Source: Candidatus Electronema aureum
GTDB taxonomy: Bacteria > Desulfobacterota > Desulfobulbia > Desulfobulbales > Desulfobulbaceae
Direction: 5' to 3'
Length of the DNA stretch: 32,000 nt
Assembly (NCBI GenBank): GCA_004284765.1
Contig: NQJD01000013.1
Coordinates: 26,415-58,414, forward strand
Both the position numbers and the translations under genes were made by a program. Shown here one piece after another: positions 4,069 through 28,347 of this stretch (the stretch's first letter is position 1; every line of letters starts with the position of its first letter). Under the pieces are notes generated by a model. It was not told the DNA's origin, did not search any database, and saw only the letters and a program-made list of their open reading frames with translations.

Positions 4069-5511
4069 TCAGACAAAGTCGATGCTCACTGGGCAGTGGT
4101 CGGAGCCGTGGATATCATCGTGAATTTCGGCGGCCCGGACTCGGTTTCGGCTGCGTTCGTCCACGACGAAATAATCGATCCGCCAGCCCACATTGCGCTG
4201 CCGAGCAGCGGTGCGGTAGCTCCACCAGCTGTAGCGTTCCGGCTCGGCATGAAAGAGGCGGAAGGTATCGAGATAGCCTGCTTGGACTAACTCATCCATC
4301 CAAGCTCGCTCCTCAGGAGAGAAGCCGGGACTCTGCACATTTGCTTTGGGATTGGCAAGATCGATTTCCTTGTGCGCTACATTCAAATCGCCGCACAGCA
4401 GCACTGACTTTTCCACTGCCAACTGGTTCAAATGATCCAGCATCGCTCGGTTGAATGCCTGCTTAAAGGCCAAGCGTTTCAGGCCGTCTTGGGTATTAGG
4501 AAAATAGGCGGCGACTAAGTAAAAATCAGCAAATTCAAGGGTCAGCACCCGGCCTTCGCAGTCGAATTCTTCATGTCCCAAGCCGTAACGCACCCGCAAC
4601 GGTTCTTTGCGGCTGAATACCGCCACTCCAGAGTAACCCTTTTTCTTAGCCGGATGCCACCAGACCTGATAGCCGGGGATGCTCCGGGCGGCTTCGGGCA
4701 ATTGCTCTGGCAGGGCTTTGATCTCCTGCAAAGCAATGATGTCGGCGTTCAGCTTACTCATGCTATCAAGAAAGCCTTTGTCCATCACCGCCCGCAACCC
4801 GTTGACATTCCAAGATACCAAGCGCAGGACTGGGCATGGAAACTGCTCCTTGCCTGCCGTCTTGCGCGGCTGTACACCGAGCTGCGGACAATAGGCAGCA
4901 ATCACGCAGCGGTTGCAGTGCGGAGCGCGAGGTTTACAAGTGCCTTGGCCGAACGCCACCAGCAAAGAGTTAATGCGGAGCCAGTGCTGCTGCGGCAGTT
5001 TGGCCCGCAGAGCGGTCTCGGTCTCTGCGGGACTGCGGGTCTGCACATAGCCCCAGATGTTCATGATCCGATGTACGTGGGTGTCAACGCAGATAGCAGG
5101 CTTGCTGAACGCCACCGCCATGACTAAGTTGGCGGTTTTACGACCTACGCCCGGTAGCCGGAGCAGTTCCTCGATGGTCTCTGGCACCTGCCCAGCAAAG
5201 TCACGGCGGAGAACTTCAGGCAATGCGGCAAGGTAGCGGGCTTTACTGCGAAAGAAGCCCACGGGATAGATCAGCTTTTCCAATTCCGCAACTGAAAGTC
5301 GGGCAAGAGCCTCAGCGTTTTCTGCCTGAGCAAAGAGCCGCCGAGCTGCCCCCGCCGTGACTTCGTCTTTAGTGCGAGCGGAAAGAATGGTTGCGGTCAA
5401 GACTTTGAAGGGGTCGTTCGTCTGGGCGGCAATCAAGTCAACCACCGGCACTTGGTATCCAGCAATCTCCTTGTTTAGCAGGGCAACAACAGTATCGATG
5501 GGAAAAGTCAT
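4069..5511 (-). CDS. Fusion protein: endonuclease III (Nth, HhH-GPD + 4Fe-4S loop) N-terminal half and exodeoxyribonuclease III (Xth/ExoIII AP endonuclease) C-terminal half
   Basis: Single 480-aa ORF. In aa 1-208: the HhH motif LPGVGRKTANLVM with the catalytic Lys, VDTHVHR with the Asp, and the FeS loop CKPRAPHCNRCVIAAYC (C-x6-C-x2-C-x5-C). In aa 228-480: LVSWNVNGLRA, IALQEIK, GDLNVAH, WRIDYFVVD and GSDHCPVSIDF, a complete ExoIII catalytic set. Confidence 0.85.
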   Translation of the reverse strand: MTFPIDTVVALLNKEIAGYQVPVVDLIAAQTNDPFKVLTATILSARTKDEVTAGAARRLFAQAENAEALARLSVAELEKLIYPVGFFRSKARYLAALPEVLRRDFAGQVPETIEELLRLPGVGRKTANLVMAVAFSKPAICVDTHVHRIMNIWGYVQTRSPAETETALRAKLPQQHWLRINSLLVAFGQGTCKPRAPHCNRCVIAAYCPQLGVQPRKTAGKEQFPCPVLRLVSWNVNGLRAVMDKGFLDSMSKLNADIIALQEIKALPEQLPEAARSIPGYQVWWHPAKKKGYSGVAVFSRKEPLRVRYGLGHEEFDCEGRVLTLEFADFYLVAAYFPNTQDGLKRLAFKQAFNRAMLDHLNQLAVEKSVLLCGDLNVAHKEIDLANPKANVQSPGFSPEERAWMDELVQAGYLDTFRLFHAEPERYSWWSYRTAARQRNVGWRIDYFVVDERSRNRVRAAEIHDDIHGSDHCPVSIDFV

Positions 5512-9461: not shown

Positions 9462-9575
9462 AGAAGTTACGTAGGCTTAAAATATAACGAATTGATTTTA
9501 TTCATGAGTTTCTTTTTATGAAAAAGATAACCTGCTTGAATTATTCATTTTGTAATATTGAACTGCGTAACTCCT
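9462..9575. repeat. 114-bp MITE-like element, copy A (degenerate left TIR, intact right TIR)
   Basis: The right end tgaactgcgtaactcct (9559-9575) matches the right TIR of the 27698-27811 copy at 16 of 17 positions. The left end agaagttacgtagg resembles aggagttacgcagt. Shared internal blocks are ttgatttt(a/g)ttca, tttatg and tgtaata. The two copies have the same length. This one starts 8 nt after the trm112-like stop. Confidence 0.6.
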
Positions 9576-9608
9576 ATTAATTTTTCGCAAGTCCCATGTT
9601 TGAAAATT

Positions 9609-9784: not shown

Positions 9785-10909
9785 ATGAAAGTGAAGATGC
9801 TGCTGCAAACTGCTGCGCTACTGCTTCTATCAGCAGGGCTTGCCCAAGCCGGAGGTACTAAGTTCGGCAAAAAACATTTGACTTGCGATGATTGTTCAGC
9901 AGAGTGCCTGAAAAATCCCTATGCTAAAGGCTGCCCGGATATCTGCAAGTCACCTGATTGTCAGGCATCTTGCAATGACTGCCCGGCAGAATGTAAGCAG
10001 CATCCGGGCGCGAAGGGTTGTCCTGAGATATGTACAGATATCAAATGTCAGTCCTGTGAAGATTGCACCCCTGAATGCAAAAAGAATCCTACAGACACAA
10101 GCTGCCCAGATATCTGCAAGGACATGAAATGCTACACGTGCGATGACTGCTCGGTAGAATGTGTCATTGATCCTACTGGTAAAGATTGTTCTCCAGTCTG
10201 CGCTGATCTCGGTTGCAATGTCTGTGATAAATTTCCCAAAGATTGTCCGGCCTCATGCAAGGACAACCCGAACGACCCTGATAAATGTCGCGCTGAATGC
10301 AAGGATGTTCCTGAAAAATGCTTGCTACCAAAGGGAACCTGCGATGATTGTTCTCCGGCATGTAAAGATGGCACTGAAAAAGATCCAGAGGCCTGTAAAT
10401 CTTGTCCGCAGGAATGTCTGCCGGAGTTACCACCGGTTGTTGAGACTGAACGGCCTTTCAAGTTTGTTGGTGATCTCGGCTACTTCAAGCAGACTGATCC
10501 GGCAGATTACATCTTTGGACGGTTCGGCGTAGAATATAGTCCCTTTGCTACAGGCAGCGAATTTGAAAACATCTCTTTCTTGGGCATGATTGGTGCTGCC
10601 GCACAAGTGAACGGTACAGATGGTGACGATGCGCTATTGCTGGATGTTTTTGCCAACTACAACTGGAAGGCAGGCGATGTTGACGGCTGGGTCGGTCTCG
10701 GTGTGGGTGGCTGGATCACCTCCGGCGATGTGGAAGATGATTCAGGAGACACTGACATAGATGTTATGGCCAACATCGGTGCCCGCGTCTATGGCGATCC
10801 AAAAGATTTCAATGTATCTTTCTTCTTAGAGGTACGCAGTGCGGTTGATGAGTTTGACGGTTTGGCCGAATATGGTCGTTTCGGTGCAGGTGTTCGCTGC
10901 AAGTTCTAA
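9785..10909 (+). CDS. Secreted cysteine-rich tandem-repeat protein with C-terminal outer-membrane beta-barrel-like domain
   Basis: RBS aaggagag lies about 7 nt upstream of the ATG at 9785. The Sec-type signal peptide is MKVKMLLQTAALLLLSAGLAQA, with no twin-Arg. Aa 34-211 contain 36 Cys in 178 aa. Aa ~225-374 show alternating hydrophobic/Gly-rich strands ending ...RFGAGVRCKF, with the terminal Phe typical of OMP C-termini. Confidence 0.75.
   Translation: MKVKMLLQTAALLLLSAGLAQAGGTKFGKKHLTCDDCSAECLKNPYAKGCPDICKSPDCQASCNDCPAECKQHPGAKGCPEICTDIKCQSCEDCTPECKKNPTDTSCPDICKDMKCYTCDDCSVECVIDPTGKDCSPVCADLGCNVCDKFPKDCPASCKDNPNDPDKCRAECKDVPEKCLLPKGTCDDCSPACKDGTEKDPEACKSCPQECLPELPPVVETERPFKFVGDLGYFKQTDPADYIFGRFGVEYSPFATGSEFENISFLGMIGAAAQVNGTDGDDALLLDVFANYNWKAGDVDGWVGLGVGGWITSGDVEDDSGDTDIDVMANIGARVYGDPKDFNVSFFLEVRSAVDEFDGLAEYGRFGAGVRCKF
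9884..10417 (+). repeat. Coding tandem repeat: four 28-29-aa six-Cys modules plus two degenerate six-Cys modules
   Basis: The modules are CDDCSAECLKNPYAKGCPDICKSPDCQAS, CNDCPAECKQHPGAKGCPEICTDIKCQS, CEDCTPECKKNPTDTSCPDICKDMKCYT and CDDCSVECVIDPTGKDCSPVCADLGCNV. Spacing is C-x2-C-x3-C-x8-C-x3-C-x4-C. Nucleotide units have diverged while Cys positions are kept. Confidence 0.85.
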
Positions 10910-11848: not shown

Positions 11849-12703
11849 ATGAACATTCCTGAATTTCCCATCCCCTTTGTCAAAATGAGTGGCACCGGCA
11901 ATGATTTTATCCTCATTGACCACCGCCAGCCGCTGATCGAGCCTGAATCCATGTCCGCCTTTGCCGCTGCTGTCTGCCGCCGCAAGTTTTCGGTCGGCGC
12001 GGACGGGTTGATTCTGATTGAAAATTCTGAGCAGGCTGATTTCCGCTGGCGTTTTTTCAACGCCGATGGCTCGGTTGCGGAAATGTGCGGCAACGGAGCG
12101 CGCTGCGCGGCCCGCTTCGCCTTCATGCAGGGCATTGCTCCGGCGAAAATGCGCTTTGAAACTTTAGCTGGGATCATCGAGGCGGAGGTTTCTGGTGACG
12201 AAGTAGCAGTGAAGATGACCGAGCCTCGTGATCTGCGCCTGCATCAGACCATCAGTGTTAACAACGCGCCGCTCATCATGCACAGCCTCAACACCGGTGT
12301 GCCTCATGCGGTGGTCTTTGTTGACAATATCGAAGAAACCGACGTGTGTGGCCTTGGCAGGGCGATCCGTTATCACGAAGCCTTTCAACCTGCTGGCACC
12401 AATGTCAATTTTGTCCAGAAGCGCGGCGAGGCCTTCAAGGTACGCACCTACGAACGCGGCGTGGAGGATGAAACCCTCGCCTGCGGCACCGGCTCCGCTG
12501 CCAGCGCGATCATCGCCGCCTTGTTGGGCCAAGCTGCCTCGCCCGTCGAAATTATCACCTCTGGCAACGACCGGTTGATGATTTTGTTCGACCTGAGCAA
12601 GGTTAAGGCTGGCGGAACAGGGCCGATTGTTTATAATGTTTTCCTCAAAGGCCCGGCCCGGATTATTTACGAGGGAGAACTGCGCAACGAGGCATTGCTT
12701 TAA
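11849..12703 (+). CDS. dapF: Diaminopimelate epimerase
   Basis: ORF 11849..12703(+). It has FVKMSGTGNDFILID and both catalytic Cys motifs (MCGNGARC and LACGTGS). Length is 284 aa. Confidence 0.9.
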   Translation: MNIPEFPIPFVKMSGTGNDFILIDHRQPLIEPESMSAFAAAVCRRKFSVGADGLILIENSEQADFRWRFFNADGSVAEMCGNGARCAARFAFMQGIAPAKMRFETLAGIIEAEVSGDEVAVKMTEPRDLRLHQTISVNNAPLIMHSLNTGVPHAVVFVDNIEETDVCGLGRAIRYHEAFQPAGTNVNFVQKRGEAFKVRTYERGVEDETLACGTGSAASAIIAALLGQAASPVEIITSGNDRLMILFDLSKVKAGGTGPIVYNVFLKGPARIIYEGELRNEALL

Positions 12704-12787
12704 TTCAGCAAAAATGAACAGATATTTTTTTCTGTAGTAAAATAGACATATGATCAATATAATATTGATGCTCAGTCAAATGATATT

Positions 12788-14086
12788 ATGAATATAACAA
12801 AAAGAGATTTTTTCGTCTCAATTATTCTGTTAATTATTTCCGCTTTTTTTTTCTGTTATGTAAACTTGAGCATTAAGTCATTCGATGAATGGCATTCTTT
12901 GAAATATGCAACACCAGACAGTAAAACATATCTTGATGTTGGCAGATGGATTTTAGGTGAAAATACATTTGATAATGCAGAAAGCAGCGTTGCGATAAGA
13001 CCTTTTTTTTATCCTCTCGTTATTGTAATTTTAGATTCAATACATCCTTTAGCTGTAGCAATATTTCAATTTACTTTATGGCAGATTCAAATTTTGATGA
13101 TTTATTTTTTTTGTATTAAAGTAAGCAGATTATTTATTTTGTCAATTTTAGTCTCGGTGTTAAGTATTGGCATCCTTTCTCCTATAGGGATATCTTTACA
13201 TGCTCTCACGGAAACGTTATCATCATTTTTCATTACTTTTTCCATATTCATATTTATCTTTTTTTTGGAAAAAAATTCATACAGATATATTTATGCATAT
13301 TTATTATCGTTATCTTTTTGTTCCGCAACCAGACCATCTTATATATATGTATATATTTTTTCAATAATGATACTTTTCTTTTTTTTAATAAAAAAAAGGA
13401 AGTTTTTTTATATATGCATACTTGCAACAACATTTCTTCCGATATCATTACAATATTATGTAATGAAGAAACATTTTGATAGCTACAAATTATCTTTTAT
13501 TGATTCCTTTGCTATAAATGATTATTTTTTATCAGGACTTGAGCTGTATAAAAGAAAAGTTGAATTTGATGCTAATAGAAATTTATACATACGAATGGTT
13601 CGCGATGCGAGACGTGAATATATGGCAGAAATGATTAAGGAAAAAGGGTATGGAGAAACATCAAAAAAAGTAAAAAGTGATCTTCTTGCCAGTTTAGTTA
13701 ATTACCCTAATGAAAGTCTTCGTCAATTTAAAGACTTAATTATTGAAAATTCAATGCAGCCATCATCATTTATTACGGCTAATAAAAATTTATACATTGC
13801 TACTTTTGCTCAAAGCAAACTTCTTTTGACAATAAATATAATTTCTGCTTTATTTTTTTCTGTGATTATTTTTAATAAAAAATATTTTGCTGAAGAAATT
13901 TATGAAAAAAATATCGTATTCAGCTTGTTGATATTTTTCTGCATATATTTTACATATATTTCTACAGGGCTTACCTTCTGGCAAGGAGACAGATTTATTA
14001 TTCCTATATACTATGCAAGTATCATGTTGTTTGTGCATCAAACAAGAATGTTTTTTGCATTTATCAGAAATACAAATAAGAAATAA
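12788..14086 (+). CDS. Polytopic integral membrane protein, possibly a GT-C-type (PMT_2/ArnT-like) glycosyltransferase
   Basis: ORF 12788..14086(+), 432 aa and extremely AT-rich. It has about 10 or more hydrophobic segments. The first loop, YATPDSKTYLDVGRWILGEN, weakly recalls the acidic first-loop motif of GT-C enzymes. The functional call is tentative. Confidence 0.6.
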   Translation: MNITKRDFFVSIILLIISAFFFCYVNLSIKSFDEWHSLKYATPDSKTYLDVGRWILGENTFDNAESSVAIRPFFYPLVIVILDSIHPLAVAIFQFTLWQIQILMIYFFCIKVSRLFILSILVSVLSIGILSPIGISLHALTETLSSFFITFSIFIFIFFLEKNSYRYIYAYLLSLSFCSATRPSYIYVYIFSIMILFFFLIKKRKFFYICILATTFLPISLQYYVMKKHFDSYKLSFIDSFAINDYFLSGLELYKRKVEFDANRNLYIRMVRDARREYMAEMIKEKGYGETSKKVKSDLLASLVNYPNESLRQFKDLIIENSMQPSSFITANKNLYIATFAQSKLLLTINIISALFFSVIIFNKKYFAEEIYEKNIVFSLLIFFCIYFTYISTGLTFWQGDRFIIPIYYASIMLFVHQTRMFFAFIRNTNKK

Positions 14087-14093
14087 TATTAAA

Positions 14094-14669
14094 ATGAAAG
14101 AGCCGATCTTTGAACCTGTTTTAAGGAAAATACGTATAGGAAAAGTTATTGATGAAATCAAAAATATTCCAAGATGCAATCTTCTCGATATTGGATGCGG
14201 TTTTAACTATAGTTTTTTGTCTGCGGTGGAACAATATATCGAGCATGGGACAGGTATTGATTTTAAAGTCAATGAAATTTATTCTGAAAAAATATCAACC
14301 ATCAAGATGGTGTTAGATGAAACCTTAAACTTCAATGACTGTTCATTTGATGCTGTAACAATGCTTGCTGTTCTTGAGCATATAGACAAGCCGATACATA
14401 TATTTTCTGAAATATATCGAGTTTTAAAGCCAGGTGGAAAATTAATACTTACGGTTCCTGGAAAAAAAGCAAAGCCGTTGTTGGAATTTCTTGCTTTCAA
14501 GATAGGAATTGTTAGTAGAGCTGAAATAGAAGACCATAAAAAATATTATGATTTAGAAGAGATCAGCCAGCTCGTATTAAATATCAATGAATTTGAAATA
14601 ATAAAGCATGAGCATTTCCAGTTTGGAATGAATAATTTTTGTGTTATAAAAAAATCTATGATTAGCTGA
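14094..14669 (+). CDS. Class I SAM-dependent methyltransferase
   Basis: ORF track 14013..14669(+), trimmed to the ATG at 14094 (MKEPIFEPVLRKI), 8 nt after the upstream stop. Motif I is LLDIGCGFNY; other motifs are AVTMLAVLEHI and LKPGGKLILTVP. Confidence 0.75.
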   Translation: MKEPIFEPVLRKIRIGKVIDEIKNIPRCNLLDIGCGFNYSFLSAVEQYIEHGTGIDFKVNEIYSEKISTIKMVLDETLNFNDCSFDAVTMLAVLEHIDKPIHIFSEIYRVLKPGGKLILTVPGKKAKPLLEFLAFKIGIVSRAEIEDHKKYYDLEEISQLVLNINEFEIIKHEHFQFGMNNFCVIKKSMIS

Positions 14670-14675
14670 TTTTTC

Positions 14676-14954
14676 TATCAAAGAAACTGACGTGCTCGGC
14701 TTTGGCCGAGTGATCCGCTGTCGCGAAGCCTTTCAGCCTGCAAACACTAACGTCAACTTTGTGCGGACGTGCAGCTTGGCCAAGCTACTTCGCCCGTTGA
14801 AATTATCACCTCCGGCAACGACCGCCTGACGATTTTATTCAACCTGCCGGAGCATAAGGCTGGCGGAACTGCGCCAATTGTTTATAATGTTTTCCTCAAA
14901 GGGCCTGCTCATGCGGTCTATCAGGGCGAGCTGACCGCCGAGGCATTGCTTTAA
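14676..14954 (+). pseudogene. Decayed second copy of the dapF 3' end (internal deletion plus frameshift, catalytic Cys region lost)
   Basis: 14681-14765 translates ETDVLGFGRVIRCREAFQPANTNVNFV, compared with dapF ETDVCGLGRAIRYHEAFQPAGTNVNFV (nt 12334 onward). About 36 codons including LACGTGS are missing. The frame then shifts to ORF 14769..14954: LGQATSPVEIITSGNDRLTILFNLPEHKAGGTAPIVYNVFLKGPAHAVYQGELTAEALL, compared with the dapF C-terminus LGQAASPVEIITSGNDRLMILFDLSKVKAGGTGPIVYNVFLKGPARIIYEGELRNEALL. Confidence 0.85.
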
Positions 14955-14970
14955 ATCCAAGGAGAATGAG

Positions 14971-16871: not shown

Positions 16872-16903
16872 ATCATAAGCATCTTTGATCATAAGCATCT
16901 TTG
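16872..16903. repeat. Perfect 16-bp tandem direct repeat (atcataagcatctttg x2)
   Basis: Read directly: 16872-16887 and 16888-16903 are identical. It lies 16 nt after the HNH gene stop, at the right edge of the AT-rich insert. Confidence 0.9.
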
Positions 16904-20526: not shown

Positions 20527-20568
20527 TAGCGAGTGAAGCAAATCTCGAAAAAAGAACAGGAGAACACC

Positions 20569-20964
20569 ATGAAAAAGATGCTGCTGCTCTGCGGTTGTTT
20601 GGCTGTATTGACGATTTCCTGTGCCAAAGACAAGCCTGCGGAGCCAACTCCGCCGAAACTGATTGAATTAAAGTACAATGCCGCCGTTGAAGAGGGGGGA
20701 ATTCGCATCCAGTTTGCCGCTGTCACCAGCGACTCGCGCTGTCCGACCGGGACGCAGTGTTCATGGGCAGGCAATGCGGAAATTGTGCTGGAACTGACCG
20801 GCGACGGCAACCAAGCGGCGATACTGAATACCAACTCGCAGTATCAGCAAAGCTACCGGTACAACGAGTACAATATCACGCTGAAGGAGCTAAAGCCGCA
20901 CCCTGAAGCAGGACAACAGATTGATGTGAATTCGTATGTCGCGGTGCTGACGATAGAGAAGTGA
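20569..20964 (+). CDS. Lipoprotein of unknown function
   Basis: ORF track 20533..20964(+), trimmed to the ATG at 20569, which is preceded by aggaga. The sequence MKKMLLLCGCLAVLTISCAKD carries the lipobox LTISC. A conserved-looking DSRCPTGTQCSWAG segment is present. Confidence 0.7.
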   Translation: MKKMLLLCGCLAVLTISCAKDKPAEPTPPKLIELKYNAAVEEGGIRIQFAAVTSDSRCPTGTQCSWAGNAEIVLELTGDGNQAAILNTNSQYQQSYRYNEYNITLKELKPHPEAGQQIDVNSYVAVLTIEK

Positions 20965-20970
20965 ATTGAA

Positions 20971-21009
20971 AAGAGAGCAAAAGCATGATGGCTTTTGCTC
21001 TCTTTTTTT
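20971..21009 (+). terminator. Strong Rho-independent terminator
   Basis: aagagagcaaaagc-atgatg-gcttttgctctctt forms a perfect 14-bp stem whose right arm runs directly into a T tract (tctctttttttt), 7 nt after the lipoprotein stop. Confidence 0.9.
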
Positions 21010-21110
21010 ATAAAAATGGCTCTCTACTATTCTTACAACTCCTGAAATTCGTATAGAATTTGCTGGACGACACCTATATATAGCTGAAGCAGCATAAAGT
21101 GAACTTGAAT

Positions 21111-21181
21111 GTCATTCCGAGCGGAGCGAGGAATCTCCTCTTCGTCCTTGGCGTGAGATTTCTCGCTCCGCTCGAAATGAC
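21111..21181. repeat. 71-bp palindromic (REP/hairpin-like) element
   Basis: Left arm gtcattccgagcggagcgaggaatctc (21111-21137). Right arm gagatttctcgctccgctcgaaatgac (21155-21181). The arms are complementary at 25 of 27 positions, with a 17-nt spacer. I recall the GTCATTCCGAGCG.AGCGAGGAATC motif as a dispersed palindromic repeat in diverse bacteria. Confidence 0.7.
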
Positions 21182-21241
21182 AGATACGACGGTTAAAATT
21201 ATGTTGCTCTGGCTATAAATAGAGAGATAGAGTTGATTAGT

Positions 21242-22657
21242 ATGGATAATATCAAAAATCTCAAGTCAACATCTGACGGATGGCGTGGGGTTACAGCAGA
21301 TACATTTACCTATAACGAGGTAGGATTAATAGCTTCGGCTATTGCGAAGTATATCCAAGAAAAAGGGTATGCCAAAAAAATCATTATCTCCTATGACACG
21401 AGATTTCTTGGTGAAAAATTTGCACAAAAAGCGGCTCAAGTATTTAAAGTAAATGGGATTATACCATTAGTCATAAGTTACCCTATACCAACTCCATTGT
21501 TATCATTCAGAGTAAATCAACTGGGGTATCCATGCGGCATTTCCATCACAGCATCGCATAATCCATATAATCATAATGGAATTAAATTGCGCATGAATTA
21601 TGGCGGTGCTCCAACGCCTCAAATTATCAAAGAAGTTGAGTCGTTTCTGCCTTTTTCAAGTCCTGAAATCCGCACTGCCGGTGCTATCAATTTCGACAAT
21701 CCTCTAAAAGATTATGTTGAGTACATGAGATCATTAGTAGATATGGAATCTATTCATTCCAGTCAAGCTAAGATTCTTATTGATCCGATGTATGGCACTA
21801 CAGCAGGATTGCTAAAAAAAATTCTTGGAACAACATCGGTTGTTGTTGATGAAATTCATACGCATCATGATCCGTATTTCGGAGGTGTAAATCCTGAACC
21901 CCAACGTAAAACGACGTTAGAGTTGCAACAATCAGTATCTATTGGACTTTACGATTTAGGCATAGCTCATGATGGCGATGGCGACAGATTAACAGCCTGC
22001 CTGCCTGATATTGGTTATTTATCTCCGCATGATATTTCTGCGGTTCTTTTGTGGTATCTGGTCAGAAAAAGAAAATTGACTGGAAAGGTAATTGGCAGCC
22101 TTACTCTCAGCAGGAGACTGTCCAGATTGGCAGAATATTTTGGACTGGAATATGTGGAGATTCCCATAGGGTTCCACTATGCAACAGCTTTAATGCTGCA
22201 AGGAGGTGTCTTAATCGCTGCTGAGGAAAATGGCGGCATCGGGTTTGGATTTTATCTGCCGGAAAGGGATGCGACATTGGCGGCATTGATGCTCATTGAG
22301 GCTGAAGTCAAAGTCGCTGGTGGCATAGCTTCTATTTTAGAAGAAATTGGGAAAATATCGGGCAAATCTGGTTTTTATCGCATGAATATCGATCTTAATT
22401 CTAACCGAACAGAATGCTTGAAAGAACTGCGCAGCAATATCCCAAAGGAATTAACCGGGATAAAAGTCTGCAAAATTAATGATGCCGATGGGTTAAAAAT
22501 ATTTTTGACAAACGGAGATTGGGTGTGTATTCGTGTAGCTGGAACAGAAGATTTGCTCAGGATTTATGCTGAGGCGGGGGACAATGCTCTTGCCGAGCAA
22601 TTGGCCAACGAAGCTGCATGGTTGGTCAAGAAAATAGATGGCAAATTAGCGAGGTAG
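21242..22657 (+). CDS. Phosphohexomutase (phosphoglucomutase/phosphomannomutase family)
   Basis: ORF track 21233..22657(+, TTG); the ATG at 21242 is preferred. Motifs are SDGWRGV, the phosphoserine loop ISITASHNPYNHNGIKL, the Mg loop IAHDGDGDRL, the sugar loop AAEENGG and the phosphate loop RVAGTEDLLRIYAEA. Confidence 0.85.
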   Translation: MDNIKNLKSTSDGWRGVTADTFTYNEVGLIASAIAKYIQEKGYAKKIIISYDTRFLGEKFAQKAAQVFKVNGIIPLVISYPIPTPLLSFRVNQLGYPCGISITASHNPYNHNGIKLRMNYGGAPTPQIIKEVESFLPFSSPEIRTAGAINFDNPLKDYVEYMRSLVDMESIHSSQAKILIDPMYGTTAGLLKKILGTTSVVVDEIHTHHDPYFGGVNPEPQRKTTLELQQSVSIGLYDLGIAHDGDGDRLTACLPDIGYLSPHDISAVLLWYLVRKRKLTGKVIGSLTLSRRLSRLAEYFGLEYVEIPIGFHYATALMLQGGVLIAAEENGGIGFGFYLPERDATLAALMLIEAEVKVAGGIASILEEIGKISGKSGFYRMNIDLNSNRTECLKELRSNIPKELTGIKVCKINDADGLKIFLTNGDWVCIRVAGTEDLLRIYAEAGDNALAEQLANEAAWLVKKIDGKLAR

Positions 22658-22662
22658 CAGCC

Positions 22663-23796
22663 ATGTGGGAACTACAGACACCTAAAGTCATTGTCAATGG
22701 AAGGGGTTCTATTCAAAACATCAATTCGATGATGTCAAGATTTGAGATAACCCGCCCGTTAGTTGTTATTGACCGAGAGGTAAAGTTAACTGAATTTGGA
22801 GATGTTTTTTCAAGGTTGATGAATGAATATCCTTGTTTGCTCTTCTCTGAATTTTCTACAAACCCAACTACCTCTCAGATTAATTGTTGCCTTCATAATT
22901 ATGATCTGTCATTGTGTGACGGAGTTATTTCCATTGGCGGAGGCAGTGCTATAGATTTAGCCAAAGCCGTTAATTTGGTTATTTCTCATGGCGGCACAAT
23001 CGAAGACTATCTGAACGGAAAGACAATCAATGGCAAATTAAAACCTTGTATTGCCGTACCAACCACTTGCGGAGCAGGTGCGGAAAGCAGTCCCTATGCA
23101 GTTATAACAGACACTGCGTTCCTCAAGAAAAGAGGAATAAGCAGTCCGTATTTGGTACCTGATGCGGTGCTGTTAGATGCCGACTCGTTAAACTCTTTGA
23201 GCAGGCTTATGATTGCCGCTACTGGGATTGATAGTTTAACTCATGTCCTTGAATCTCATATCTCTAAAAAGGCTACACCTCTAACCCGCATCAGCAGCAG
23301 GGGGTTGCTGCTGTCATTTGGCCTGTTTCTTGAACAAGCTATTTTTAAAAAGAATGAAGCCGCCTTGGAAAACCTGCATGATATAGCGTTTACAGCGAGG
23401 CTGCTGTATCCCAGAACAGGATTATCTGTTGCTCATGCATTATCCCATCCAGTGGGAGCGCATACAAATTTGCATCATGGCATGGCTGTGGCGTTATTTT
23501 TAATAACTTCACTTCGTTTTAATAAGTCGTATTGTGCAGAGGCATTCGATGAAGCAGAAGAAGTTTTAGGTTTAAAAAGAAGAAAACTCAGCTTGTTGGA
23601 TTGGATTGCCAGAATCATCAATGAATCAGGAATAACCTCATATCTGGTTCAGCATATAAGCAAAAGTAAACTTCCATTAGAAATTATTGCTGAAGATTCA
23701 TTGCGCAGCAGCAACATAGCCTCAAACCCAAGACCAGTTGACAAATACGACATGTTGAATATCATAACCGAATCGCTGGAACAGTTGCAACGATAA
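22663..23796 (+). CDS. Iron-containing alcohol dehydrogenase / DHQS-superfamily oxidoreductase
   Basis: ORF track 22618..23796(+), trimmed to the ATG at 22663, 6 nt after the upstream stop. Motifs are GGGSAIDLAKAV and the metal ligands GIDSLTHVLESH and HALSHPVGAHTNLHHGMAVA. Confidence 0.75.
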   Translation: MWELQTPKVIVNGRGSIQNINSMMSRFEITRPLVVIDREVKLTEFGDVFSRLMNEYPCLLFSEFSTNPTTSQINCCLHNYDLSLCDGVISIGGGSAIDLAKAVNLVISHGGTIEDYLNGKTINGKLKPCIAVPTTCGAGAESSPYAVITDTAFLKKRGISSPYLVPDAVLLDADSLNSLSRLMIAATGIDSLTHVLESHISKKATPLTRISSRGLLLSFGLFLEQAIFKKNEAALENLHDIAFTARLLYPRTGLSVAHALSHPVGAHTNLHHGMAVALFLITSLRFNKSYCAEAFDEAEEVLGLKRRKLSLLDWIARIINESGITSYLVQHISKSKLPLEIIAEDSLRSSNIASNPRPVDKYDMLNIITESLEQLQR

Positions 23797-23798
23797 CG

Positions 23799-24635
23799 AT
23801 GGAGATAGAGCTGCTTGGAAAAATTCGAGATTGTTTTAAAGCGATAACTCAAGAGGTGGATAGCTATCTATCTTCTCAGAATTTGTTCGATATTCAATGT
23901 GAATATAAGGAAAATATATGCGGCTGTTTGGAGGAAGTCACAAAAATTGACAAGGGAATTGAAAGGGTATGCAAGCGCATTCTAAGCTCTCAATTTCCTG
24001 ATTTTTATATCATAGCTGAAGAGAGTGACCATGAAAAAAGAAATGGTTATGAACTTAATTCTTTTTTTGCAATAGATCCTGTTGATGGAACGTTAGAGCT
24101 GCTTAATGGCGGAACTGACTGGTCAGTTTCGCTGGCAGCCATTGCCGATAGGAAAACACAAGTTGCTATGCTGTATTTTCCTCGGAAATCAATCCTCCTT
24201 TCAGCAATACGAGGACAAGGGGTTGTGTTGAATGGTGTCAAAGTTGTATCTGAAAAAAATAATAGAAGAAATTATAAGATTGGTGTGAGTCCAAGGCAAA
24301 TTACACATTCAGCATTAAAAGAATCTTTAACGACTAGCTTCTATCAGTATGTAGAAATTCCTCATTTCACGCCAAAAATACTAGCCCTTGTTTCGGGTGA
24401 AATAGATGTCGCAGCTTATCTACCCCAAAAAAACAAAGGTGTGAGATTATGGGATTATGCTGCTGCCAGTCTCGTGCTTCACGAGTTCGGCGGAAAGTTG
24501 GAATCCTTAACTGAGGGATCATTGGATTTTGGTGGTCATGTCCTTATGCATAAGGGAGGTTGGATTGCTGCTAATGACAAATTTGACCATGCTTCGCTCG
24601 TAAACTCTCTTTTATCAGTAAATTTAGACGAATAG
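23799..24635 (+). CDS. Inositol monophosphatase-fold phosphatase (IMPase/CysQ/FBPase superfamily)
   Basis: ORF 23799..24635(+), starting 2 nt after the upstream stop. Motifs are IIAEESD, AIDPVDGTLELLNG (DPxDGT) and WDYAAASLVLHEFGG. Confidence 0.8.
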   Translation: MEIELLGKIRDCFKAITQEVDSYLSSQNLFDIQCEYKENICGCLEEVTKIDKGIERVCKRILSSQFPDFYIIAEESDHEKRNGYELNSFFAIDPVDGTLELLNGGTDWSVSLAAIADRKTQVAMLYFPRKSILLSAIRGQGVVLNGVKVVSEKNNRRNYKIGVSPRQITHSALKESLTTSFYQYVEIPHFTPKILALVSGEIDVAAYLPQKNKGVRLWDYAAASLVLHEFGGKLESLTEGSLDFGGHVLMHKGGWIAANDKFDHASLVNSLLSVNLDE

Positions 24636-24643
24636 GTAATGAA

Positions 24644-26893
24644 ATGAGCAAGAAAACAATTTTGGTCACGGGTGATGTTTGCATCGACTGGAATATTTTA
24701 ACAAATCGGTCTTCTGATCGCAATAATTTTTGGAAATCAGAGGGTGAATGGGCTTCATCAAAACCAGAAGGAGGTGCAGCGTTCCTATTGGGAAAAATAA
24801 TCGAAGAAACATGTGAAGGTGTCGCTGACACTCTCTGCAGGAAATTTAAAGAAACATATCTGAAATCCAATGAACTTGACCACCTTTATACTATTTGGAA
24901 CGAATATGACGTTGACAAAAGCAAAAATGATTCTAACAAGAAGAAAGCTATGAGGATTCAGCAGTATCTTGGTCACAAGCCACGGCGTTCCAACTATCCA
25001 TTTTCTATGGATTTAGAAGATTTGAAAAATGAATCTGATGGTAAAAATATAGAAATTATAATTATTGATGACAAGCGGTTTGGGTTTAGAGGTTCTGAAA
25101 AAGATGAAAAAAAATATATAGATCAAGACAGATATTGGCCAGACTTCTCAAATTCTCAACTAATCATTTTAAGGATGGCTCGGGATTTATGCAAGGGAGA
25201 ATTATGGCAGAATCTTATTACCACACCTGAATACAGCAATAAGTTAATCACGGTGTTCACAGCAACGGATTTACGACATGCAGAGGTGAGAGTCAGCAGA
25301 GAACTTTCGTGGGAGCAAACGATTTCAGATGTTATGAAAGCTCTTACTTCAAAGGAGTTAGAGAGTACTCGTAACTGTAAATATGTCTTAGTGTCTTTTG
25401 ATGCGGCAGGAGTATTAATTTGGTGTCCCAAAAAGTCTACATTGGATGTAGTTTATACTCCTAATTTGATGGAAGGGCAAGCTCAGTTAACTATTGAAGG
25501 TCATATCAATGGGCATACATATTGTCTTATCAGCGCACTTGCCTACTACATAGCAGAGGCAGATAATCCTGATTATGAAAATTTAACGACAATATTGAAT
25601 AACTCAGCATTCATAGGGATTCACACTATGAACGAATTGTATTCAAAAGGCTTTTTTATGGTAAGAAAAAATAATAATGAGAATCCGCTATATTTGTCAA
25701 TTGACTCTCCAGTTAATGTGGTGAAGGATGCTGTTATTACCGCATTCAAGGCATTGAAAGAATCTTCGACAACAGATAAAGATAAGAAGGATGAAGCTGT
25801 TAAGGCATGGGAGAAAAGTTACTCAGCTCTTGCTAAAATTAACGAACTGTCAATAGATAAAGTTTTATCGAAAGATTTCAGTATATTAGACCATCTCTTG
25901 GTAAAAGTAAATGTAAAGGATATTCTTGAGAAAGGAATTGATGAAGCCATGAAGGGTGTTCCTGTTTGTAAGTTCAACAACTTGATTGTTATTGATAGGG
26001 AAGAAATAGAAAGTTTACATAGTATACGTAACATAATACTTGAATATGATCAAAAACGAAAAAACAATTTCAGTATTCAACCGCTCTCCTTAGCCGTCTT
26101 CGGCCCTCCTGGCTCAGGAAAATCATTTGCCGTGAAACAGCTTGCAGAATATCTTACAAAATCTCATACGTTAAAGACCGAACATGAAAAAATAGAGTTT
26201 AATCTATCGCAATTTTCAGATCCAAAAGAAATCATAGAAGCATTTCATCAAGTCCGGGATGCGGTTTTGAGCGGAAAACTCCCCTTCGTATTTTGGGATG
26301 AATTTGACTCTGAATTTGAAGGCAAAAAATTAGGCTGGCTCAAATATTTTCTTGCACCAATGCAGGATGGTACATTCCAAGATGGGCAAATTACGCACCC
26401 TATTGGTTCATGTATTTTCGTTTTTGCCGGAGGCACCTACCATACCTTTTCTGATTTTGTAAACCCATCAAAAAAAGAAGATGGCGACAAAAACAGCAAA
26501 GAGCTACCAGAAAATGATGATAAAAGCAGCAAGAAGCCAGACTTCATGAGCAGACTCAAGGGGCACTTAACCATTAAGGGGATCAATAAAGATATCCGGG
26601 GAAATCATTATAAAATCCGTCGAGCAATTTTGCTTAGAGGGCTTCTGGAAAAGCACGCAAAAACTATCTGGACTAAGAATTTTAAGCAACCTAATATCCA
26701 TCATAGTGTTATCAATGCGTTTATGGATATTGATGAATATAAGAATGGTGCACGGTCCATGGAAGCGATAATCGTCATGAGCCGTTTATCCGGCGAGATG
26801 GAGTTCACAGCCTCTGCTCTTCCACCGAACAGCCAGTTAGATATTCATGTAGACGGCGAGAAGTTTATCAAACTTGCCTATGGCAGCATGTAA
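24644..26893 (+). CDS. 749-aa fusion: ribokinase/HldE-like N-terminal region lacking the GAGD motif, plus a C-terminal AAA+ ATPase
   Basis: ORF 24644..26893(+). The N-terminus is ILVTGDVCIDWNIL...PEGGAAFLLGKII (PfkB-like start). The expected GAGD position reads INGHTYCLISALAYYI. AAA+ core: Walker A LAVFGPPGSGKSFAV (about 26102-26125), Walker B FVFWDEFDS and CIFVFAGGT, then a Lys/Asp-rich insert and a helical lid (PDFMSRLKG, GARSMEAII). Confidence 0.65.
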   Translation: MSKKTILVTGDVCIDWNILTNRSSDRNNFWKSEGEWASSKPEGGAAFLLGKIIEETCEGVADTLCRKFKETYLKSNELDHLYTIWNEYDVDKSKNDSNKKKAMRIQQYLGHKPRRSNYPFSMDLEDLKNESDGKNIEIIIIDDKRFGFRGSEKDEKKYIDQDRYWPDFSNSQLIILRMARDLCKGELWQNLITTPEYSNKLITVFTATDLRHAEVRVSRELSWEQTISDVMKALTSKELESTRNCKYVLVSFDAAGVLIWCPKKSTLDVVYTPNLMEGQAQLTIEGHINGHTYCLISALAYYIAEADNPDYENLTTILNNSAFIGIHTMNELYSKGFFMVRKNNNENPLYLSIDSPVNVVKDAVITAFKALKESSTTDKDKKDEAVKAWEKSYSALAKINELSIDKVLSKDFSILDHLLVKVNVKDILEKGIDEAMKGVPVCKFNNLIVIDREEIESLHSIRNIILEYDQKRKNNFSIQPLSLAVFGPPGSGKSFAVKQLAEYLTKSHTLKTEHEKIEFNLSQFSDPKEIIEAFHQVRDAVLSGKLPFVFWDEFDSEFEGKKLGWLKYFLAPMQDGTFQDGQITHPIGSCIFVFAGGTYHTFSDFVNPSKKEDGDKNSKELPENDDKSSKKPDFMSRLKGHLTIKGINKDIRGNHYKIRRAILLRGLLEKHAKTIWTKNFKQPNIHHSVINAFMDIDEYKNGARSMEAIIVMSRLSGEMEFTASALPPNSQLDIHVDGEKFIKLAYGSM

Positions 26894-26964: not shown

Positions 26965-27696
26965 ATGCCGCTCACGGCAATTATTCTGGCTGGAGGCAAA
27001 CAAACTCGACTGCGAGACATAGGTCTTTCCTGTCCAAAAGCCTTAGCAGAGTTATCAGGAACGCCTCTGCTCAACTATCAGATTCGGCAGCTTCAACAAG
27101 TTGCAACGTCCATTATTATTGCCGGAGGACGGTTGTCAGATATTTTTTACAGGATATATGCAACTTCTTCTCCTGTTAAAATCTCGCCAGACCCAGTAAT
27201 TGGAACAGGAGTGGCATTATTGGAGGCTGCGAAAATAATTACTGATGATCATCTCATCATCTGCAATGCGGATACGGTCAACGATCTTCCATTGCAGGAT
27301 ATTGTTGATCATTATTTTCTTCACTACGCTTCTTTGTGCATGATCGTCCTGACAAGGCGTGAAGGCGTGCAAAATTCAGGTGCATTTGCTGTAGATGCAA
27401 GCAACCGGGTAATCCGATCCTATGAAGATAGAAACCTTGGATCTCCGCCACACCCTGAAGCTGTATGGCATGGAGCAAGCACCGGTGTGATAATGATGCC
27501 ACGCAGATTGCTGCGCAATGTTCACCCGTTTCAATCGCATTCACTGGAGCAAGATATACTGCCTGAACTTATCTGGCGTGGCAAAGTGTATGCGTTTGAT
27601 AATGGCACTAGTTTTTCATTAGATATCGGAACACCAGAACGGTTCGGCCAGTTTGCTAAAATCAAAAAGGACGTATTGGAATTATTCCAATACTGA
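26965..27696 (+). CDS. Sugar-phosphate nucleotidyltransferase (NTP_transferase family)
   Basis: ORF track 26914..27696(+, TTG). The ATG at 26965 gives MPLTAIILAGGKQTRLRDIGLSCPKALAELSGTPLLNYQI, a G-x-G-x-R-L type NTP loop with PKAL. The start choice is uncertain. Confidence 0.75.
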   Translation: MPLTAIILAGGKQTRLRDIGLSCPKALAELSGTPLLNYQIRQLQQVATSIIIAGGRLSDIFYRIYATSSPVKISPDPVIGTGVALLEAAKIITDDHLIICNADTVNDLPLQDIVDHYFLHYASLCMIVLTRREGVQNSGAFAVDASNRVIRSYEDRNLGSPPHPEAVWHGASTGVIMMPRRLLRNVHPFQSHSLEQDILPELIWRGKVYAFDNGTSFSLDIGTPERFGQFAKIKKDVLELFQY

Positions 27697-27697
27697 T

Positions 27698-27811
27698 AGG
27701 AGTTACGCAGTTGAATTTGCAACTCGTTGATTTTGTTCAACTGGCGGTTTATGCAACCAAAATTCAACTCACTGTAATAATTGAATTTCAGATTTCAACT
27801 GCGTAACTCCT
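27698..27811. repeat. 114-bp MITE-like element, copy B, with perfect 17-bp terminal inverted repeats
   Basis: aggagttacgcagttga (27698-27714) and tcaactgcgtaactcct (27795-27811) are exact reverse complements. The AT-rich core carries reiterated ttcaact/ttgaat submotifs. It starts 2 nt after the nucleotidyltransferase stop and is homologous to 9462-9575. Confidence 0.75.
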
Positions 27812-27930
27812 AACTGAATATACTAATTAATGTCTGTAGTTGTCAGTGCAGAACTTCTTTTTTAAAAATTGTTTGGTGCTGGGAAAAATACCGTAAAGTT
27901 TGTCGGCTGGCAACGGAACCTATCTGGACA

Positions 27931-27990: not shown

Positions 27991-28347
27991 TGGTGGAGGT
28001 GCCGGGAGTTGAACCCGGGTCCGAAAATACTCCCCTCTCGTCTCTACATGCTTAGTTCCAAGTTAAATCCCGCCTTCAGCTCTCACTTGGAACAGAGGAT
28101 TGCTGAAAGCCGACCTGCTTGATCTCGCCAAGGGGCCGCAGATACTCCCGATGACTATCCCGAAGAGTCGACGCTTTGCTCCAGCTTTACGGGCGCGGGC
28201 TGGGAAAGCGGCACAGCAGACTAAGCTGCTAATGCGTAGTTATAATCGTCTGCGATTATATTTAAGTTCCGCCGTTTTTACGAGCTGACAGAAGGCTCGG
28301 CATGCAACGATGAGCTTGTATATCCCCGTCGAATCCGTTTCACCCCC
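27991..28347 (-). ncRNA. ssrA: tmRNA (SsrA), 357 nt
   Basis: Minus-strand 5' end: GGGGGTGAAACGGATTCGACGGGG. The 3' end is GGGTTCAACTCCCGGCACCTCCACCA (T-arm plus acceptor). The acceptor has the G3-U70 Ala identity pair. The tag ORF GCA GAC GAT TAT AAC TAC GCA TTA GCA GCT TAG (28221-28253) encodes ADDYNYALAA. It lies directly downstream of smpB. Confidence 0.95.

Follow-up and report, generated by a model that had tools for sequence, protein, structure and literature searches.

A predicted ribokinase-like domain without kinase catalytic motifs is fused to an AAA+ ATPase module in a sugar-nucleotide operon of Candidatus Electronema aureum

We analysed a 32,000-nucleotide stretch of DNA (hereafter the window) from Candidatus Electronema aureum, a freshwater cable bacterium. 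The protein under study, named X here, is encoded by the open reading frame (ORF) at positions 24644-26893 of the forward strand, which opens with ATG and yields 749 aa. Its existing annotation reads only 'ATPase family associated with various cellular activities (AAA)'. An initial annotation of the window had described X as a probable pseudo-kinase fused to an AAA+ ATPase. The coordinates and length that it gave were exact, and every peptide that it cited was found: ILVTGDVCIDWNIL at aa 6-19, PEGGAAFLLGKII at aa 41-53, KYVLVSFDAAGVLIW at aa 246-260 and INGHTYCLISALAYYI at aa 288-303, as well as, in the AAA+ part, GPPGSGKS at aa 487-494, FVFWDEFDS at aa 548-556 and CIFVFAGGT at aa 590-598. X is the fourth gene of a tightly packed five-gene operon, in the order phosphoglucomutase/phosphomannomutase (PGM/PMM), iron-containing alcohol dehydrogenase (Fe-ADH), inositol monophosphatase-type phosphatase (IMPase), X and nucleotidyltransferase (NTase).

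The layout of X was studied with an AlphaFold2 model built from a 50-sequence alignment. The model was confident, with a mean predicted local distance difference test (pLDDT) of 88.5 and a predicted template modelling score (pTM) of 0.88. According to the ORF, the model and Foldseek comparisons, the whole protein (24644-26893, forward strand, as for all parts of X) consists of a ribokinase-like domain, a linker and an AAA+ module. The model, Foldseek and alignments assign aa 1-356 (24644-25711) to a ribokinase-like fold without kinase catalytic motifs. Residues 357-445 (25712-25978) form a variable, mostly helical linker with lower pLDDT and clade-specific insertions. The AAA+ alpha/beta core spans aa 446-650 (25979-26593), with the Walker A motif GPPGSGKS at 26102-26125 and the Walker B motif FVFWDEFD at 26285-26308. 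It is followed by a predicted helical lid, aa 651-749 (26594-26890), that carries a sensor-2-like G702-A-R704-S705. X stops at this lid, where its relatives run on into a RyR domain. No model in Pfam, NCBIfam or PADLOC describes the architecture. Searches of the literature library for a ribokinase, AAA+ and RyR family, some conflict-system papers of the Aravind laboratory included, returned no description either, in line with the earlier remark that the architecture was not recognised. An X-RyR/TIR/SLOG system was likewise not found in the models and papers searched.

The other genes of the operon are of the nucleotide-sugar type, as the initial annotation had claimed. The first one (21233-22657, forward strand like the following ones) encodes a phosphohexomutase of the PGM/PMM superfamily, nearest to archaeal GlmM at a score below the cut-off, in which TASHNP, DGDGDR, EENGG and RVAGTE are present. 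The second one (22618-23796) encodes a group III Fe-ADH with GGGSAID and the Asp/His metal ligands; its true start probably lies downstream of 22618. Then comes an IMPase/FBPase-family sugar-phosphate phosphatase (23799-24635) with EE, DPVDGT and WDYAA. Downstream of X, a sugar-phosphate NTase (26965-27696) is GMPP/HddC/MurU-like and below all equivalog cut-offs. Its ORF opens at TTG 26914, and the probable start is M18 at 26965, ahead of AGGKQTRL. The catalytic motifs are intact in all four enzymes, and all four score far below the NCBIfam equivalog cut-offs; the NTase, for instance, reaches 44 bits with the HddC model as compared to a cut-off of 300.

The operon lies in an insert with a GC content of 0.39-0.42, as compared to 0.51-0.60 upstream. 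At the left edge of this low-GC insert, a perfect 16-nt hairpin followed by a T-run (20969-21006, forward strand) forms the terminator of the upstream host gene 20533-20964. The operon leader contains an inverted repeat (21110-21182) with 28-nt arms, 93% complementary, and a 17-nt loop, which may act as a regulatory hairpin or represent a repeat element. The insert is closed by an inverted repeat element of 130 nt (27690-27819; 26-nt arms, 88% complementary) located between the NTase gene and ssrA. One arm of this element (TTCAACTGCGTAACTCCTA) recurs 18 kb away at 9558-9576, and the element may be a boundary repeat of an island or resemble a miniature inverted-repeat transposable element. The tmRNA gene ssrA (27991-28347, reverse strand; tag ADDYNYALAA) has its 3′ end toward the insert, which ends 300 nt from it. 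The 3′ end of the tmRNA gene is a classic site of island integration. A direct repeat of the ssrA 3′ end bounding the insert was searched for in the window and was not found.

To characterise the N-terminal domain, the model of X was compared with the PDB using Foldseek. The first match was human ribokinase RBKS (5c3y/5byc), with an E value of 1.5e-8, a probability of 1.00 and target-normalised TM scores of 0.53-0.60. Further matches were ribokinases from Arabidopsis, Giardia and Leishmania, HldA from B. cenocepacia (4e8w) and the nucleoside kinase from M. jannaschii (2c4e). Because ribokinases head this list, the ribokinase/HldE-like identity guessed in the initial annotation was right, and the resemblance goes beyond chance. 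The structure prediction and fold comparison that it had proposed were thus carried out, and they did not place the N-terminal 450 aa outside the ribokinase-like folds. In the model, residues 1 to about 356 adopt this fold, alpha/beta with a beta-sheet lid.

Sequence comparisons did not recognise this fold. X has no match to the PfkB family of Pfam (PF00294), and scans with Pfam, NCBIfam and PADLOC returned nothing in aa 1-445, the only matches being weak P-loop ones at aa 480-560. Pfam PfkB matched one of 23 N-domains of the family, with an E value of 0.11; a profile of these 23 domains retrieved no kinase in an hmmsearch of the PDB, and hhalign against RbsK alone gave nothing. Since a search for homologues of RbsK yielded orthologues at 86-97% only, seven E. 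coli PfkB paralogs (RbsK, HldE-N, YeiI, PsuK, FruK, PfkB and KdgK) were used as the profile instead. With this profile, hhalign produced a weak alignment to the X family (E 0.0011, probability 20.6%), colinear with the predicted secondary structure. In this alignment, IIIDD of the X family corresponds to LMQLE of RbsK (E143), TAxDLR to PNETE (the NXXE motif) and VSFDAAG to ITLGSRG.

The kinase motifs were then followed across the family. NXXE is gone family-wide: in the TAxDLR(H/R/K) segment aligned to it, the Glu position is basic and the neighbouring R211 is invariant. The catalytic Asp of GAGD (RbsK Asp255), reported missing from X in the initial annotation, is indeed gone from the whole family, since no acid is conserved in either of two registers among 23-50 diverse members. 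In the hhalign register, Asp255 falls on column 285, which is variable (E/N/Q/R/P/K/D). In the register set by the start of the ribokinase helix, X aa 291, it falls on column 291 (Y/H/F/L/N/K/T/V). A Cys, C294, follows the degenerate GAGD-like motif in about three quarters of the members. The N-terminal GDVxxD (D11, D15) and GG (G44) are invariant in the family and were equated with RbsK D16 and G41-G42 by motif order and by comparison with HldE and RbsK, not by superposition; VTGDVCID...EGGAAF of X closely resembles VVGDVMLD...PGGAAN of HldE. The complete set of family-invariant residues in aa 1-356 is G10, D11, D15, G44, G110, F148, R149, L187, R211, S222, W223, E224, G256, E277, G286, G325, L332, G336 and P356, the charged ones besides D11 and D15 being R149, R211, E224 and E277. 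From this pattern we infer that the N-domain has kept a sugar or polyol-phosphate pocket and has lost the phosphoryl-transfer machinery.

Alternatively, X could be an active, highly divergent sugar(-phosphate) kinase that completes an HldE-like route made of kinase, phosphatase and nucleotidyltransferase, with the AAA+ module as a regulatory add-on. The N-terminus of X is near that of HldE (GDV..D, GGAA), HldA is among the fold matches, the NTase is HddC-like and C294 might stand in for the lost base. We retain this explanation because some kinases of the ribokinase fold, ThiD and ThiM, use a Cys in place of the Asp. However, neither an acid nor a Cys is conserved at the catalytic position in either register, the Glu of NXXE has become basic and X lacks a Pfam PfkB match. 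In addition, hundreds of relatives linked to RyR and devoid of a sugar pathway show the same motif pattern. An active kinase is therefore quite improbable.

The C-terminal half of X was described in the initial annotation as an AAA+ core with a Lys/Asp/Ser-rich insertion and a helical lid, and this description holds. The PF00004 match is weak, at 22.8 bits for a cut-off of 21.2, and weak Pfam matches to Torsin and bpMoxR were observed too. However, the module is intact: Walker A GPPGSGKS, Walker B FVFWDEFD, FLAPMQDG, R637 in PDFxSRL and G702-A-R704 are invariant in 50 sequences. Using phmmer, aa 456-644 were aligned to nucleotide-binding domain 2 (NBD2) of Hsp104, with the Walker A and B motifs, the LLQxxDDG helix and the Arg of 'FLNRI' in register. 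FLAPMQDG of X corresponds to LLQxxDDG of the Clp D2 domain, R637 is a putative Arg finger by its alignment with the 'FLNRI' Arg, and G702-A-R704 resembles, by alignment only, the GAR sensor 2. The Lys/Asp/Ser-rich insertion (aa ~607-629, 26462-26530) is disordered and has the lowest pLDDT of the model.

An aromatic pore loop was not found in X: the alignment shows a deletion opposite the GAPPGYVG segment of Hsp104, where X reads NLSQFSDPKEII. Because this segment is deleted and the ATPase motifs are intact, a threading unfoldase is disfavoured, and the AAA+ part, to judge from its motifs, resembles a functional ATPase switch. If X were an unfoldase or disaggregase similar to Clp/Hsp100, with the N-domain as a substrate- or adaptor-binding module, this would explain why the closest structural and sequence matches of the AAA+ half are Skd3, ClpB, ClpA and Hsp104 NBD2. 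Nevertheless, X has one AAA+ module only, a ClpP-binding loop was not identified in it and no protease gene is adjacent. With the pore loop absent as well, a Clp-like unfoldase was rejected, and we regard it as very remote.

The family to which X belongs is large. A search of 5.8 billion proteins gave 589 matches, and 88 of the 120 closest ones (73%) carry a C-terminal RyR (R12) domain, whose identity was backed by a PDB profile match to ryanodine-receptor repeats (E 1.9e-28). X itself, which ends at aa 749, has no match to RyR (PF02026). An exhaustive hidden Markov model search with the N-domain alone retrieved, at E ≤ 1e-3, 2,459 clusters defined at 50% identity, and in all of the top 150 matches the domain sits N-terminally. 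When one genome per species was scanned, at least 532 carrier species were counted, including Chloroflexota, Acidobacteriota, Planctomycetota, Chlorobiaceae, Bacillota and Methanosarcina. Three family members are plasmid-borne. Phage genomes contained no homologues of X, and BFVD contained generic AAA+ proteins only. A 2026 preprint (PMC13232231) reports that RyR/R12 domains bind or cleave 2′/3′ cyclic ADP-ribose (cADPR) immune nucleotides and that phage RyR proteins bind or cleave cADPR signals.

Neighbouring genes were clustered in 91 loci of relatives, and adjacency was counted in a non-redundant set of 80 loci. Of these 80 loci, 38 have a SLOG-like gene, a TIR gene or both at most 300 nt away from the X homologue, and 45 have one within 8 kb. 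At the shorter distance, SLOG-like genes account for 26 loci and TIR genes for 16; ten TIR calls were sampled, and Pfam TIR_2 supported nine of them. A recurrent partner, found directly downstream in 20 loci, is a protein of about 190 aa with weak SLOG-family matches. Its assignment relies on weak YAcAr, YpsA and DprA Pfam matches and on a GxTGHR...AEGADR...WDG..GGT pattern. The same SLOG-like domain recurs in 11 loci as a fusion with a SLATT membrane domain, and a 2TM-TrkA_N-RyR protein is also present in 11 loci. DUF4062-NACHT/nSTAND1-TPR proteins were counted in 18 loci, and proteins of the WD40 and TIR-TPR types recur as well. The typical family member thus sits in a context of NAD/ADP-ribose-type nucleotide signalling, in settings that resemble defence islands. 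TIR genes beside X-RyR relatives (loci L051, L060, L041 and L017) have C-terminal SBP_bac_5, PPC with choline-binding repeats, TPR or WD40 modules, a variety that is the pattern expected of diversified sensors.

The protein of the window belongs to a particular branch of this family. In a neighbour-joining tree, all NTase-linked X proteins, including the one studied here, form a single clade devoid of RyR, and none of their loci contains TIR, SLOG or RyR. The sugar-nucleotide operon is a trait derived within this clade. Relatives at 79, 61, 51 and 41% identity have retained the order of the five genes, between unrelated flanks. These flanks contain a PIN gene and a glycosyltransferase family 4 (GT4) gene that matches Pfam GT4-conflict weakly; a HigBA-like pair, an integrase, RadC and ArdC; purL; and a system of the ABC-3C type. 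The gene after the NTase of one close relative encodes a GT4 glycosyltransferase similar to MshA/BshA. A relative at 38% has Fe-ADH, IMPase, X and NTase, no mutase gene being called in the upstream sequence at hand. A second type of cassette, composed of a PhyH dioxygenase, X and NTase, occurs in two relatives at 36-37%. The NTase, located after X, is the one partner kept in every member of the clade. Since the remaining enzymes vary among clade loci, X and NTase form the constant pair. The cassette is mobile and patchy in distribution.

No small membrane effector follows the NTase consistently in the clade loci. In one locus of the PhyH-X-NTase variant (L102, 6029-6340), a 103-aa gene after the NTase encodes two predicted hydrophobic helices and has a sub-threshold SLATT_4 match (E 0.008). 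Its product may be a small membrane effector; a counterpart was not seen in the other locus of this variant, L009.

A first explanation of these data is that X is a regulator or scaffold of the housekeeping type. The operon would make an NDP-sugar or NDP-polyol (NDP, nucleoside diphosphate) for an envelope glycan, or for a small glycoside or compatible solute, and X would sense an intermediate by way of its dead kinase fold and use ATP to tune or assemble the enzymes, with no role in conflict. Indeed, the four enzymes look active from their motifs and outline a plausible route from phosphosugar to NDP-sugar. The MshA/BshA-like GT4 gene of the close relative, the glycosyltransferase family 2 gene and other envelope-type genes elsewhere in the window, and the absence of canonical immune domains from the cassette loci are all consistent with such a route. 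On the other hand, the X family is tied to TIR, SLOG, SLATT and STAND neighbours and not to sugar enzymes. Moreover, the cassette is patchy, low in GC, adjacent to ssrA and found beside toxin-antitoxin genes, integrases and a known conflict system, and its PhyH variant swaps the enzymes and retains X and NTase. A purely housekeeping role is therefore possible, though rather unlikely. The interpretation given in the initial annotation is partly supported: the ribokinase-like fold, the lost catalytic motifs and the intact AAA+ module hold, whereas the large RyR-, TIR- and SLOG-linked family does not agree with a one-off metabolic regulator.

We favour the explanation that X is a ligand-gated AAA+ switch of an undescribed, widespread conflict-system family, and that its clade has been rewired to an NDP-sugar pathway; we see the chances that it is correct as evenly balanced. 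A housekeeping metabolite sensor is no more likely than a conflict-system switch, because the family is large, carries RyR and has TIR/SLOG/SLATT/STAND neighbours, and because the sugar operon is derived within one clade. The conflict role of the family would probably be directed against phages or mobile elements. In this scheme, the dead kinase domain would be the receptor for a ligand of the ribose-phosphate or sugar-phosphate type, and the invariant R149 and R211, together with the acids D11, D15, E224 and E277, would suit a phosphorylated polyol. Ligand binding would gate an ATP-dependent assembly or conformational switch of the AAA+ ring. In the present clade, the output or the input would be the NDP-sugar chemistry of the operon, in place of a RyR/SLOG/SLATT/TIR module.

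Several observations weigh against this explanation. The insert of the window contains no TIR, SLOG or RyR gene, and the cassette loci as a group (that of the window and five others) contain no TIR, SLOG, SLATT or RyR gene; the defence interpretation of the cassette is thus taken over from relatives at 30-36% identity. None of the PADLOC or NCBIfam defence models matched: in PADLOC-DB 2.0 the best match of X was mad8 (E 0.0023, P-loop only), and the operon enzymes had none. Many X-RyR genes are solitary amid unrelated genes. The 80 loci are the best tblastn matches and not a random sample, and the adjacency counts come without a matched background rate. The mapping of the ribokinase residues depends on the hhalign alignment at 20.6% probability and on secondary-structure order, not on superposition. 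Finally, kinase, phosphatase, mutase and nucleotidyltransferase are also the logic of ordinary NDP-sugar biosynthesis, as for ADP- or GDP-heptose.

A more far-reaching proposal is that the five-gene insert is an immune module of a new kind, which uses sugar-nucleotide chemistry where its relatives use TIR/SLOG/RyR parts for nucleotide signalling. Infection would be sensed through the dead kinase fold, and the AAA+ switch would in response activate the enzymes or serve as their scaffold. These enzymes would synthesise or degrade a small molecule, either an NDP-sugar or a compound similar to ADP-ribose, with the role of a signal, a toxin or a decoy. If this view is extended to the X-RyR family of roughly 2,000 clusters, that family would amount to a Thoeris-like system not recognised so far, with a receptor core of the ribokinase fold. 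We consider this proposal unlikely.

If the ligand-gated conflict switch is correct, a degenerate ribokinase would be a new ligand-receptor fold beside CARF, SAVED, SLOG and RyR in bacterial immunity. A link to TIR/SLOG signalling would be established for a large cross-phylum family whose present annotations are only 'RyR domain-containing' or 'AAA ATPase', and one clade of this family would have exchanged the signalling parts for a complete sugar-nucleotide pathway. The ligand chemistry would then be directly approachable, since the enzymes presumed to make or consume the ligand are encoded alongside. The general logic of a sensor domain, a nucleoside triphosphatase switch and variable effectors is already known. 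Bacterial RyR domains would also gain a concrete set of genomic partners. If X is a metabolic regulator instead, it would still be an unusual fusion of a pseudo-enzyme and an AAA+ module, in control of an uncharacterised NDP-sugar route in cable bacteria.

Other features were observed in the window. Over its whole length (1-32000), the GC content is a mosaic ranging from 0.26 to 0.60 in 1-kb windows. Several blocks of low GC content alternate with the housekeeping genes dapF, dapA, smpB, ssrA and a yifB/Mg-chelatase-like gene, a pattern suggesting that this part of the chromosome has repeatedly received small insertions. The 3′ part of the diaminopimelate epimerase gene dapF (11849-12703), at 12328-12706, is repeated with 75-79% identity about 2.3 kb downstream, at 14676-14957. 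The two copies bracket a segment with a GC content of 0.26 (12788-14669), just before dapA, that encodes a 432-aa protein without Pfam match and a class I methyltransferase; this segment has the appearance of a small insertion with duplication of its target. On the reverse strand, a 480-aa ORF (4069-5511) fuses an HhH-GPD base-excision glycosylase to Exo_endo_phos (an Xth-like AP endonuclease). A 374-aa ORF (9785-10909, forward strand), without Pfam match, contains three copies of the 17-nt ACxTGCGATGAxTGxTC spaced by 255 and 201 nt, and its sequence suggests an internally repeated, Cys-containing protein. A perfect tandem of a 16-nt unit (ATCATAAGCATCTTTG x2) occupies the intergenic positions 16872-16903, before 16971.

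We finally compared X and its locus with known systems. With PfkB/ribokinase kinases (RbsK, HldE/HldA), X shares the predicted alpha/beta fold with a lid, GD..D and GG, an acidic residue ending the central strand and a GxxG strand before the ATP site. Unlike them, the X family is devoid of NXXE, GAGD and a PF00294 match, and X has extra loops (20-36, 90-100 and 150-165) and the AAA+ fusion. Plant FLN1 and FLN2 are PfkB-type kinase-like proteins that are part of the plastid-encoded RNA polymerase transcription complex and do not serve in sugar phosphorylation (PMC3409070). Their likeness to X is by analogy only: they are eukaryotic plastid proteins without AAA+ fusion, and homology does not extend beyond the fold. 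With Clp/Hsp100 NBD2 and torsin-like AAA+ proteins (HCLR clade), X shares Walker A and B and an LLQxxDDG-like helix and, to judge from the alignment, a putative Arg finger in an xPEFxxR-like motif and a putative GAR sensor 2. It differs from these proteins by the missing pore loop, the single ring module, the Lys/Asp/Ser-rich insertion and a unique N-terminal domain.

The NDP-heptose route (GmhA, HldE/HddA, GmhB, HldC/HddC) resembles the operon in that a kinase-fold protein, a phosphatase and an HddC-like NTase are encoded together, and the same order of chemistry is possible. However, GmhA and GmhB are missing, the phosphatase is of the IMPase and not of the HAD type, the kinase motifs are dead, and an Fe-ADH and a phosphomutase are present in addition. 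Membership in this pathway was rejected on account of the missing GmhA and GmhB, the absent kinase motifs and NCBIfam scores far below the cut-offs. As for Thoeris, none of the types described in the papers retrieved has a ribokinase-fold and AAA+ protein, and the locus of the window has no TIR, SLOG, RyR or PADLOC Thoeris match. The relatives of X share components with the NAD-derived nucleotide signalling of Thoeris, with its TIR producers and SLOG receptors, and with RyR/R12 proteins (RyDEP, PMC13232231): they carry RyR and are encoded beside TIR and SLOG(-SLATT) proteins.

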